Source of the DNA: Vulcanimicrobiota bacterium
GTDB lineage: Bacteria; Vulcanimicrobiota; Vulcanimicrobiia; Vulcanimicrobiales; Vulcanimicrobiaceae
Reading direction: 5' to 3'
NCBI GenBank assembly: GCA_963812155.1
Contig: CAWETW010000005.1
Coordinates: forward strand, 21,734-85,733
Length of the DNA: 64,000 bases
Part shown: piece by piece, positions 32,904 through 37,949 of the stretch
Position numbering within the stretch: the stretch's first letter is position 1
Layout of the letters: the number at the start of each line of letters is the position of its first letter
The notes under the pieces: generated by a model
The model's database searches: none
The model's input: only the letters and a program-made list of their open reading frames with translations
What the model was told of the DNA's origin: nothing
Position numbers and translations under genes: made by a program

Positions 32904-33250
32904 GACTCTCCGGCATTCGCGTTTTCGGACGCCACGGCGTCACCGCCGGGGAGCGCGCCGGCGCGCAACCGTTCGACGTGGATCTGATCGTCGAATGCGA
33001 TCTTTCGGGCGCGTCGCGCGACGACGAGATTGCGAAGACGATAGACTACGCGCGGCTGCACGAACGCGTCGTCGCGGCGGTGACCGGTACGTCGCACGCG
33101 CTGCTCGAGCGGCTGGCGCGCGGCATCCTCGACGCCGTCTTCGAAGACGCGCGCATCGCGGGCGCGGAGGTGACCGTCGCGAAACCGCGCGTGCTCGACG
33201 GTGCGACGCCGTCGGTGACGCTGGCGCGGCCGAACGACCGTCACACGTGA
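32891..33250 (+). CDS. folB: dihydroneopterin aldolase
   Basis: MDRIRL, GRHGV..E..Q.F.VD, TIDY, LLERLA, V.KP. Confidence 0.93.
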   Translation: MDRIRLSGIRVFGRHGVTAGERAGAQPFDVDLIVECDLSGASRDDEIAKTIDYARLHERVVAAVTGTSHALLERLARGILDAVFEDARIAGAEVTVAKPRVLDGATPSVTLARPNDRHT

Positions 33251-34131
33251 GCGTCCATCGAGCCTGGATCGGACTGGGAGCGAACCTCGGCGATCCCGCC
33301 GCAAACGTCGAACGAGCGCTTTCGGCGCTGAACGGGTTGGGGACCGTCCTGCGAGCGTCGTCGCCCTATCGCACGCGTCCGTGGGGAAAAACCGACCAGC
33401 CCGATTTCGTGAACGCTGCGGCGTTGCTCGAAACCGATTTGGATCCCCGCGATCTCCTCATCGCACTCAAGGCGCTCGAGCAACGGCTGGGACGGGTCGA
33501 AACCGAACGCTGGGGTCCCCGCGCTATCGACCTCGACCTGCTCGCCTACGACCAAGTGACCCTCGACGAGCCCGGGCTGCGGCTGCCGCATCCGCGGCTG
33601 CGCGAACGTGCCTTCGTGCTGGTTCCGCTGGCCGAAATCGAGCCGGCGTATGCGGCGGCGCGCGACGCGTTGCCCGCCGAGGAACTGCAAGGGGTCGAGC
33701 CTCTGGGCCGGGGAACGGTAGCGCTCATGCCTGACGAGCGCCCCGAAGTCACGCAGCGCGTCCGGCGGTTGGCCGAATTTCTGGCGGAGAGCGGCGCCGT
33801 CCGCGTTCGCATCGAGCGCGACGGCGGCGAAATCGAGGTGGCGCGTATGCCGCGCACGGCGACTACCGACGGCGTCGCGCACCTCGCCGAGAAGCCGGCG
33901 TCGCGCATCGAAACGATTAAGGCCGACCTCGTCGGCATCTTCCGCTTGAGCCGCCCGGCTCCAGTCGCCGGCGACCTGCTCGAGGAAGATCGCGAGCTCG
34001 CGTTCATCGAGGCGCTCGGCATCCGAACGCCGGTACGCAGTCTCGGCGCGGGCCGTATCGTCGCAATCGCGCCCGACGACGGCTCGCCGGTCGAATACGG
34101 ACAAGCACTCTTCTTGCTGGACAGAGGTTAG
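33247..34131 (+). CDS. folK: HPPK (FolK) in frame with a C-terminal BCCP-like domain lacking the biotinyl-lysine
   Basis: [37 protein letters not shown]; from ~33727 an AccB-like domain (ADLVGIF..IEALGI..VEYGQ.LF). Confidence 0.85.
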
Positions 34132-34135
34132 TTCT

Positions 34136-35478
34136 ATCTTTCGAAAGGTCCTGATCGCCAATCGCGGCGAGATCGCGTTGCGGATTAACCGCGCCTGCCA
34201 GGAACTGGGCGTACGGACGGTCGCGATTTTCTCGGAACCGGACCGCCGTTCGCTGCACGTGCGTCAGGCCGACGAAGCGTTCTGCGTCGGTCCGGGTCCG
34301 GTTCCGCGTTCGTATCTGAACATTCCGAACATCATCTCGACGGCGCTCATCACGGGTTGCGACGCGGTTCATCCGGGCTATGGATTCCTAGCCGAGAACG
34401 CGCGCTTCGCGGAAATCTGCGCCGACCACGGATTGACGTTCATCGGGCCGCGCCCCGGCGTCATTGCGGCGATGGGCGATAAGGCGACGGCAAAGCGCGT
34501 GATGCGCGACGCCGGCGTCGGGACCATTCCGGGGACCGACATACTTCCGACGGTCGCCGATGCGGTGCGCGCCGCGGAGAAGATCGGCTTTCCGGTGTTG
34601 CTCAAAGCCACGGCCGGCGGCGGCGGAAAAGGCATGCGCGTGGTCGAGCGCCGCGAGGATCTCGACCGCGCCTTTGCGAGCGCCACGGCCGAGGCCGAGG
34701 CGAGTTTCAAAGACGGCCGTCTGTACATGGAAAAGCTCATCTCAATCCGCGACACGTCGAAGTGCAGGTGCTCGGCGACGATTTCGGCGAGGTCGTGCAC
34801 CTCGGCGAGCGCGACTGTTCGGTGCAGAAGCCATCGCACCAGAAGCTCATCGAGGAGTCACCCGCGCCGAATCTTCCGGCCAAGACGCGCAACGCGCTGC
34901 ACGCGATGGCGGTGCGCGCGTGCAAGCACGTCGGTTATACGAACGCGGGGACGCTCGAGTTTTTGACGACGGGCGACGACGCATACTTCATGGAGATGAA
35001 CACGCGCATCCAAGTCGAGCATCCGGTTACGGAGATGGTGTACGGCATCGATCTGGTCAAGGAGCAGATTCGCATCGCTGCGGGCGAACCGCTCGGCTAT
35101 GCCCAAAAGGATCTCGTGCCGCGCGGCCACGCCATCGAATGCCGCATCAACGCCGAAGATCCGCGCAACGGCTTCGCGCCGCAAGCCGGCACCGTGACCG
35201 ATGTCGTTTTCCCCGGCGGTCCCGGAATTCGCGTGGATACGCATCTCTATGCGGGGGCGGAGGTGCCGCCGTACTACGATTCGCTTCTGGCCAAGATCGT
35301 CGCCTACGGCGACACGCGCGAAGCGGCGATTGCACGCATGGAGCGCGCGCTGCGCGAAACGGTCGTAGAAGGCGTGCACACGACGATCGATTTGTGTTTG
35401 GAGGTGCTTGCGTCGCCGGAGTTCCGCTCCGGACACTACGACATCGGCTTGCTTCCGGCGATGCTCGTTTCGGCATGA
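34136..35478 (+). CDS. accC: acetyl-CoA carboxylase biotin carboxylase subunit (ATC at start position; frameshift near 34745)
   Basis: [58 protein letters not shown]. Confidence 0.95.
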
Positions 35479-35897
35479 CGAGCCGCCGGCTGGGTCGCGA
35501 ACAGGCGCTGCAAGCGTTGTACTCTACCGAAATCGGCGGACGCGACCCCGCCGACGCATTGGGTGAAGTCGTCGGCGAGGCTGCGGATACGGCACATCGT
35601 GCGTTCGTGCGCGACCTCGTCATGGGCACGCTCGACTACCGCGGCGAAGCCGACCGCATCGTGTCGCCGCTGCTCGAGGGATGGACCCTCGAACGCCTTC
35701 CGACGATCGATCGTTTGCTCTTAGAGATGGGCACCTACGAACTGCGTCCCGGCGCCGAAACGCCGGCGGCGGTGGCGATCAACGAAGCGGTCGAACTGGC
35801 CAAGCGTTTCTCGACCGAGGATTCAGGGCGTTTCGTCAACGGCGTCCTCAACGCGGTCGTGAAGCGGCTGGCCGAGAGCTCGGATGAGCCGGCGTAA
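35475..35897 (+). CDS. nusB: transcription antitermination factor NusB
   Basis: RR.GRE.ALQALY, W..ERL..IDR, AINEAVELAK.F, FVNGVL. Confidence 0.95.
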   Translation: MTSRRLGREQALQALYSTEIGGRDPADALGEVVGEAADTAHRAFVRDLVMGTLDYRGEADRIVSPLLEGWTLERLPTIDRLLLEMGTYELRPGAETPAAVAINEAVELAKRFSTEDSGRFVNGVLNAVVKRLAESSDEPA

Positions 35898-37949
35898 GAA
35901 GGGCCGGCGCGGCGTGTGGCGCGGTATCCTCGTCGCGACTGCTGATGGTGGTGCTCTTTGCCGCGGGAACGATCGCCGGCATCGTTGCGGCCTATGCGAG
36001 AAACCTGCCGGACATCAGTCGCATGGCCGACTATCAGCCGGCGAGCGCGACGCGGATCTTCGCGCGCGACGGAACGCTGCTTGCATCCGTCTATAAGGAA
36101 AATCGCGTCTGGGTGCCGATTTCGCGCATTCCGCCGGTCGTGCGCGAAGCGTTCATCGCCAACGAAGATCACAACTTCTACCAGCATCACGGCGTCGATT
36201 TCGGCGGCATCGTGCGCGCCGGTTTCGCCGATCTCACGCATCAGGAATTTCAAGGCGCTTCCACGATTACGCAGCAGCTTGCGCGTCGTCTCTTTCTCAA
36301 CAACGAGGTGTCGCTGTCGCGCAAGGTCCAGGAGGCGCTGCTCGCAATGGAGATCGAGCGCTTCTACACCAAAGACGAAATCCTCGAACGCTATTTGAAC
36401 ATCATTTACCTCGGCGCCGGCGCGTACGGTGTCGACGCCGCGGCACACACCTACTTCGGCCGGTCGATCGACAAGGTGACCCTCGCGCAGGCGGCAATGC
36501 TCGCCGGTGTCGTCGCGGCGCCGTCCGACTACTCGCCGTTTTCGAATATGGACTTGGCGCGCGACCGGGAACGGCACGTACTGCGAGCGCATGACCGAGA
36601 GCGGCTACGTCACGCAAGCAGAAGCTGACGCAGCCTACGAGGCGCCGCTCGATTTGATCGGAGAGCGCGCCGCCGGTCTGCAAGGCTATGCGTATCCGTA
36701 TTTCACGACCTACGCAATCGCACAGCTCGACCGCATCTTCGGCAAGAACGCGGTCGATCAAGACGGCCTTGCGGTCTATACGACGCTCGATCCGCGTATG
36801 CAGCGAATCGCGCAAGACGCCGTCACGTGGGGCGTGGGTCAAGCGGTCTCCGAAGGCATCAACGCGCACCAGGCCGCGCTGGTCGCACTGCGTCCGTCGA
36901 CGGGAGAGATTTTGGCGATGGTCGGCGGGACGGGGTTCTCGCTGGCCAACCAGTTCAATCGCGCGTGGCAAGCGCGACGGCAGCCGGGCTCGTCGTTCAA
37001 AGCGTACGTGTATACCGCCGCCATCGATTCCGGGATGCCGGCCTCGGCAACGATCGACGACACGCCGGTCAGCTACCCGATGGGGGACGGCACGCGGTGG
37101 TCGCCCTACGACGACGACTTCCGCTATTTAGGCGCGGTGACGCTGCGCGAAGCGCTGACGCTTTCGCGCAACGTCGTGGCCGTGAAGCTGGCCGAGCGCA
37201 TCGGCGTCGACCGCGTCATCGAGTACGCGCATCGCATGGGCATCACGTCGCCGCTGGAAGCAAATCTTTCGCTGGCACTCGGCTCGTCGGTGGTTTCCGT
37301 TCTCGACCAGGCCAGCGGCTACTCGACCCTGGCCAATCAGGGGCTGCACGTCGATCCGACGCCGTTTCGTCTGGTCAAAGACTCGCTGGGAAGCGTCGTC
37401 CTCGACAATCAATATCCGCAGGCCAACGACGTCATCGGGGCCGGCACGGCGTACATCGTCACGTCGATGCTGCAGGACGTCATCGCAAAGGGCACCGGCT
37501 ATCCGAATGCGGTCATCGGCCGCCCGGCGGCCGGTAAGACCGGCACGACGTCGAACTTTCGCGACGCGTGGTTCGTGGGATTCACGCCCGATCTCGTCAC
37601 CGCCGTGTGGTTCGGAAACGACGACTACTCGCGCATGAACGAATCCTACGGCGGTAACGTTCCGGCGCGAATCTGGGCACGTTTCATGAAGGCCGCGCTG
37701 GCCGGAACGCCGCCGCACGACTTTACGGTTCCCAGCGACGAAGTCAGCAAAATTGCGGCATGCGGCGGGGGGCACGAATACTACTTAAAGGGAGAGGAGC
37801 CGTATTCGCCTTGCGGCGACGCTTACGCGCAGAACGCTCAGCCGTACGCGACCCTCGCGCCGTACGCTTCCCTTCCGCCGCAGCCGACGCTGCCGCCGAC
37901 GCTGCCGCCGCCGACGCTCCCTCCGACGCTGGCGCCGCCGCCCAAATGA
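35884..37949 (+). CDS. class A penicillin-binding protein (PBP1A family; frameshifted)
   Basis: ED.NFY.H.G, GASTITQQLAR, RK..E, RQPGSSFK, SRN, GKTGT. Confidence 0.93.
37884..37943 (+). repeat. short coding tandem repeat (PTLPP-like, 4 copies) at the PBP1A C-terminus
   Basis: ccgacgct unit repeated four times. Confidence 0.6.

Follow-up and report, generated by a model that had tools for sequence, protein, structure and literature searches.

The locus described here raises two questions: what can a homologue of the biotin carrier protein AccB (BCCP) still do when the residue that bears biotin has disappeared, and which protein then carries the biotin? In the window, i.e. the whole stretch of 64,000 nucleotides that was analysed, the gene preceding accC encodes a protein of 134 aa, here named AccB*, which its translation and its homologues identify as a lysine-less AccB paralogue (accB*, 33727..34131, on the forward strand like all the features of the window given below). 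The translation agrees with the preliminary description, where EALGI was reported in place of EAMKM at 34009..34023: these residues (95-99) retain the hydrophobic flanks, and Gly98 occupies the position of the biotinyl-lysine. In a profile alignment with the E. coli AccB (4HR7, positions 12-140), Gly98 lies opposite Lys122. The defining feature of AccB/BCCP, a biotinyl-lysine in the motif (A)MK(M/L), is absent from AccB*.

The AccB-like character that had been claimed for the whole protein was borne out by sub-cut-off matches to PF00364 (E 4e-4, 20.6 bits, under the Pfam cut-off of 22.1) and TIGR00531 (29 bits, below the curated cut-off of 115.2), and by the best Foldseek matches of its AlphaFold model, which are the BCCP domains 9a87 and 1bdo. 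The model starts with a helix-strand-strand motif (residues 6-39, 33742..33843; H6-22, E26-31 and E34-39 at pLDDT 61-75) that aligns with the N-terminus of E. coli AccB. It is followed by a variable linker of low confidence (residues 42-54, 33850..33888; pLDDT <50, unconserved columns) and by a biotinyl-like domain recognized from the model and from Foldseek (residues 61-132, 33907..34122; pLDDT 94-98 across residues 61-130), whose thumb is five residues short (13 instead of 18). Both the biotinyl fold and the N-terminal motif of the AccB/BCCP family are therefore present in AccB*, according to the model, Foldseek and the profile match. The protein also keeps the docking positions V88, P/A145, E147 and aromatic 148 of AccB/BCCP (E. 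coli numbering). By alignment, Val69 (33931..33933) is the equivalent of E. coli BCCP Val88, named as a biotin carboxylase docking contact in the supplement of PMC11160672, and PVEYG (34087..34101) is the equivalent of Pro145-Val146-Glu147-Phe148-Asp149, the non-catalytic docking face. AccB* resembles E. coli AccB (4HR7, 8UXZ, 1BDO) by its helix-strand-strand N-terminus, its flexible linker, its biotinyl domain and its slot before accC. It differs by the absence of K122 and of five thumb residues, docking and carrying being distributed over two genes instead of one.

A sequencing error at the biotin site, already considered improbable from the number of changed bases, was rejected: contigs assembled from the read runs X1 (577 nt) and X3 (274 nt) show 0 differences each and reproduce the EALGI codons, and the sequence EALG[IM]R is found in 121 of the 121 closest homologues (query included), none of which contains MK. 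The start methionine is kept in 119/121 of these homologues. A pseudogene was rejected as well, given the conservation of the homologues, the retention of the gene throughout the phylum and the values of dN/dS in the C-terminal domain (about 0.10 and 0.09 in comparison with the two closest relatives), which indicate purifying selection. The same data weigh on the idea that AccB* might be another true carrier, with its modification at a different residue, or else a duplicate in decay. The presence of a lysine at the biotin site of some orthologues would suit a second carrier, but 11 of the 121 homologues are devoid of any lysine, which excludes biotinylation at another lysine for these proteins. 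With MK found in none, a dN/dS of about 0.1 and retention across the phylum, this idea is hardly tenable.

The source names of homologues place the genome in Eremiobacterota (Vulcanimicrobiota), and AccB* is a real feature found throughout this phylum. All 61 genomes searched in the class gave a match, and 59 of the corresponding loci were fetched (G048 and G059 were left out). Two of the 59 (G033 and G035) come from unpublished genomes, and all conclusions are independent of both. The gene accB* is directly before accC in 59/59 class loci, and the residue at the biotin site is G in 42, K in 9 and R in 8 of them, the K forms (as LKL or LKV) and the R forms all belonging to a single family (f3). 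Within one genus of this family K and R alternate at the site (K in G047, R in G056), and the AccB* proteins of the family (L049-L066) have an acidic, proline-containing C-terminal tail ending in EPPR[LIM]. In other classes of the phylum, a BCCP-like gene precedes accC in 19 of 20 loci, the twentieth being a different carboxylase; the residue at the biotin site of these 19 proteins is N, G, S or R, never K. The thumb spans 13 residues in 121/121 closest homologues and in 58/59 class proteins, and 17-18 residues in 12 of the 19 orthologues from other classes. The expected conservation of the lysine loss in accC-adjacent orthologues thus holds broadly but not everywhere, K being present in 9/59 class loci and in 13 of 36 AccB*-like loci of other phyla, and the members with K may still be biotinylated.

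The gene order around accB* is folC-folP-folB-folK-accB*-accC-nusB-pbp1A-xseA. The gene nusB (35475..35897) marks the ancestral slot accB-accC-nusB. On the 5' side, folK (33247..33726) is in frame with accB* and has no stop of its own, so that read-through gives a product of 294 aa. This arrangement raises the idea that AccB* functions mainly as the C-terminal portion of a fusion with FolK, coupling folate synthesis to the carboxylase. The in-frame read-through is present in 19/39 loci (19/28 when only the loci with folK within 450 nt are counted), and fused proteins of 293-325 aa exist in databases. The fusion is absent, however, from 20/39 loci; in family f3 and in the other classes folK does not neighbour accB*; and the internal methionine, like a GAA located about 14 nt upstream, is conserved whether or not a locus is fused. 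These observations make this idea very improbable. The GAA (33713-33715 in the window) is found in nearly all 39 loci whatever the frame of folK and is possibly a promoter or initiation signal. CGAA shows a mild peak near starts across the genome, with 14 and 11 occurrences at -15 and -14 (519 starts).

The gene accC (34136..35478) begins 4 nt past the stop of accB*. No other stand-alone biotin carboxylase was found in the genome, whose completeness is 84%. The two other BC domains each have their own carrier domain downstream, and accD-accA and birA are located at other sites. No ATG, GTG or TTG start was detected for accC, and ATC is predicted instead (34123-34138). The last codons of accB* contain a Shine-Dalgarno-like AGAGG (34123..34127), 8 nt from the ATC, which is presumably used by the ribosome. 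Of 77 loci compared, 20 have ATC or ATT here, among them every one of the 15 loci of the same genus, and the starts in the remaining loci are mostly ATG, GTG or TTG. Such a weak start would reduce the amount of AccC compared with that of AccB*. The frame of accC is interrupted by a base missing near 34742. This base is present as an extra base at 34742-34743 in 4/4 read runs, and three relatives are in frame; the frameshift is therefore an assembly error and accC was rejected as a pseudogene. Near 36628, pbp1A is split into two frames, probably by an assembly error like that of accC.

The true carrier is encoded elsewhere, as had been proposed. A canonical AccB (EAMKLF, full thumb) is found alone between hisS and gmhA on a separate contig (G000 C3:36124-36570), so that accB* coexists with a true-carrier gene in its own genome. 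In the accC-bearing genomes of other classes, a true carrier gives the best BCCP match in 24 of 25 cases. We compared 199 AccB* (121 closest homologues, 59 from the class and 19 from other classes), none of them selected on the docking motif, with 183 partner carriers (120 + 12 + 24 + 27, the truncated L260 being left out). An aromatic residue (Y/F) is found at the position of Phe148 in 121/121, 59/59 and 19/19 AccB*, i.e. 199/199, and in 0/120, 0/12, 0/24 and 0/27 partner carriers, i.e. 0/183, these being counts from sets that contain close kin and overlap in part. Position 147 is E or D in 198/199 AccB*, and V is kept at position 88 in 121/121, 58/59 and 15/19 of them (194/199). The carriers have K122 in 119/120, 12/12, 24/24 and 27/27 sequences (182/183) and an 18-residue thumb in 183/183, and P145 persists in only two of the 183. 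They keep M121 and a mostly hydrophobic residue (M/L) at 123, and E147 is found in 14/24 carriers of the other classes; they may consequently dock weakly by themselves. At the level of sequence, AccB* and the carrier AccB have thus degenerated reciprocally, the former having lost the lysine and, in the class, five thumb residues, and the latter the docking face.

To place this pattern, single-copy BCCPs were taken as controls from two other phyla (31 and 41 genomes searched) as the best TIGR00531 matches over the cut-off; they were not chosen on the docking motif, carriers and controls being picked by the same family score. V88, K122, E/D147, F/Y148 and the thumb are together in 24/24 and 28/28 of these controls (52/52). 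On the side of the partner, the AccC loop that receives the BCCP docking residues is present in all 78 AccC matches.

In E. coli, according to PMC11160672, the biotinyl domain of BCCP rests at a non-catalytic AccC/AccD site through V88, M121, M123, P145, E147 and F148, M121 and position 123 making the main AccD:BC contacts. The same source gives a predicted helix-strand-strand for the N-terminus of E. coli AccB, a barrel of N-termini tethering the travelling carriers (modelled with AlphaFold and placed in density that is weak), and the proposal that docked biotinyl domains and oligomerised N-termini retain these carriers in the complex. An accC-adjacent copy without the lysine but with the docking residues, and a true carrier showing the reverse, make a separate anchor subunit likely in the phylum. 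We propose, with a probability of about 0.6, that AccB* is a dedicated anchor subunit predicted to dock onto AccC/AccD, and that AccB is the swinging arm. The carrier gene would have been duplicated, docking and carrying being then divided between the two copies. The sequences themselves show this division: the copy beside accC retains V88, E147, F148 and hydrophobic residues at 121/123 and has lost K122 (as well as five thumb residues in the class), and the copy beside hisS retains K122 and the thumb, F148 being lost and P145 mostly so. AccB* would occupy the docking site on AccC/AccD and co-assemble with AccB through the shared N-terminal motif, thereby tethering it. A predicted complex of the two N-termini (residues 3-45 each) scored 0.18, the mark being 0.32, and counts neither for nor against this. 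With AccB* docked and acting as a tether, AccB could swing freely from one active site to the other, and AccB* would be needed for the assembly and the activity of acetyl-CoA carboxylase (ACC). Against this proposal stand the lysine kept at the biotin site by some AccB*, the docking contacts retained by the carriers and the read-through from folK.

A docking-site blocker would leave the same sequence pattern as an anchor. AccB* could be a dummy carrier that damps or tunes ACC, by binding the docking site of AccC or by diluting the biotin-bearing copies in AccB oligomers: it keeps the docking face, most members cannot carry biotin, and accB* shares its locus with accC and not with accB, so that the ratio can vary. 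An inhibitor role has also been proposed for the plant BADC (PMC11926652). A pure competitor nevertheless leaves unexplained why the carrier has lost the same face (183/183), which single-copy carriers keep (52/52), and an inhibitor directly before accC throughout the phylum would stand in a nearly fixed ratio to its target, an arrangement that probably suits a subunit better. We consider this role rather unlikely. The class-invariant surface motif of AccB* (ADLVG, DREL and RNP) lies outside what a docking model explains, and it could point to an adaptor that recruits PII or a protease adaptor, or that acts on transcription through its N-terminus; the binding of PII to BCCP and autoregulation by the N-terminus of AccB are cited in PMC11160672. 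This motif is specific to the class, however, while the fold and the docking positions are all that is retained phylum-wide, and the reciprocal losses seen in the carrier indicate the docking face for BC. An adaptor role is thus quite unlikely. As for the regulatory or structural subunit suggested in the preliminary description, the structural part (docking) is favoured over a purely regulatory one, and the term BADC-like is used as a working analogy.

The gene accC is missing from 19 of 151 genomes of the phylum (G061, G062, G071, G075 and 15 more), all 86-98% complete. No full-length match to AccB* was found in these 19 genomes (best E 6e-11), and none to AccB either, so that ACC appears to have been lost altogether. 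The 19 genomes belong to three families and count as about three events. In two of these families, four of four genomes that have accC gave an AccB* match (E 6e-31 or better).

The plant plastid BADC (BADC1-3, the biotin attachment domain-containing proteins of heteromeric ACCase) is described in PMC11926652 as a BCCP paralogue without biotinylation motif, 25-30% identical to BCCP and unique to plants. In the same text, plant BCCP1 alone forms no complex with BC, BADC acts as a glue for the assembly of BC and BCCP, and its role as activator or inhibitor is disputed. Like BADC, AccB* is a motif-less BCCP paralogue beside a true carrier, with 26% identity over residues 46-132. Unlike BADC, which is nuclear-encoded and plastidial, AccB* is bacterial and its gene stands in the accC operon where accB ancestrally stood, the carrier having moved away. 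The carrier of this genome shares with Arabidopsis BCCP1 a serine at the position of E147 (S190 in BCCP1, the register being derived from Lys165 and the strand limits; PMC11926652). By analogy with these descriptions, AccB* may work like BADC. A search for BADC by name among the matches of the longer-protein search (3 matches) and in the ESM Atlas (biotinyl-domain clusters only) returned none. PMC11926652 also mentions a non-catalytic subunit that aids the assembly of the holoenzyme in actinobacterial acyl-CoA carboxylases. We found no description of a bacterial lysine-less AccB in the literature searched, whose coverage mostly excludes subscription papers. The actinobacterial glue subunit, which we take to be epsilon (AccE), is like AccB* in being non-catalytic. 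It is a small protein that is not known to be related to BCCP and that acts on the carboxyltransferase, whereas AccB* is a whole BCCP paralogue.

A bacterial pair with such a clean reciprocal loss predicts residue by residue the purpose of the non-catalytic docking site, and AccB*/AccB represents a small system that could be rebuilt in E. coli for testing the glue and inhibitor models. For annotation, the gene next to accC that is named accB in these phyla does not encode the carrier, and such an operon transplanted without the distant carrier gene would fail.

When 1.84 billion representatives were searched, further AccB*-like proteins were recovered outside the phylum, with G, R, N, S, A or K at the biotin site, the named sources being Armatimonadota, Ktedonobacterales and one Lactiplantibacillus. 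Eighty named loci were considered, of which 36 outside the phylum were classed as AccB*-like from a short thumb or a changed motif; these 36 were found with the PVEYG pattern and cannot be counted for its retention. Pairs of AccB* and carrier similar to those of the class are found in Armatimonadota, in Ktedonobacteria and in one Elusimicrobia genome. Among 30 genomes with an AccB*-like gene from other phyla, a separate canonical carrier is the best BCCP match in 27. At E 1e-12, at least two BCCP matches are present in 25/30 AccB* genomes, against 2/29 genomes with an all-in-one AccB. A quick tree using all columns grouped 35/38 AccB* (SH-aLRT 95) and 28/28 carriers (87), and a careful tree without the trait columns (80 columns) resolved neither these groups nor a single origin. 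The 24/24 all-in-one carriers from the phylum of a Melainabacteria genome point to separate origins for AccB* and BADC. Tentatively, and with the odds somewhat against it, one ancestral duplication (Eremiobacterota, Armatimonadota and part of Chloroflexota) may have given rise to a five-subunit bacterial ACC, with AccB* as obligatory anchor and AccB as swinging arm. Plants would have converged on the same arrangement, using BADC and BCCP, and what generally makes a 'dummy' carrier essential would be that the true carrier has lost its docking face.

Gene orders outside the phylum were read in 14 loci. The order is efp-accB*-(pilin-like gene)-accC in Armatimonadota, efp-accB*-xseA in Chloroflexota and efp-accB*-accC in one Elusimicrobia genome. 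One Ktedonobacteraceae genome has a tandem accC-accB*-accB (L231:1464-3805), a convenient natural operon for reconstitution. The pilin-like gene separates accB* from accC in the Armatimonadota loci read (e.g. L169:3936-4304). In many of the Bacillota genomes sampled (L309-L333), the open frame that holds the best AccB match is longer than 600 aa, which suggests a fusion.
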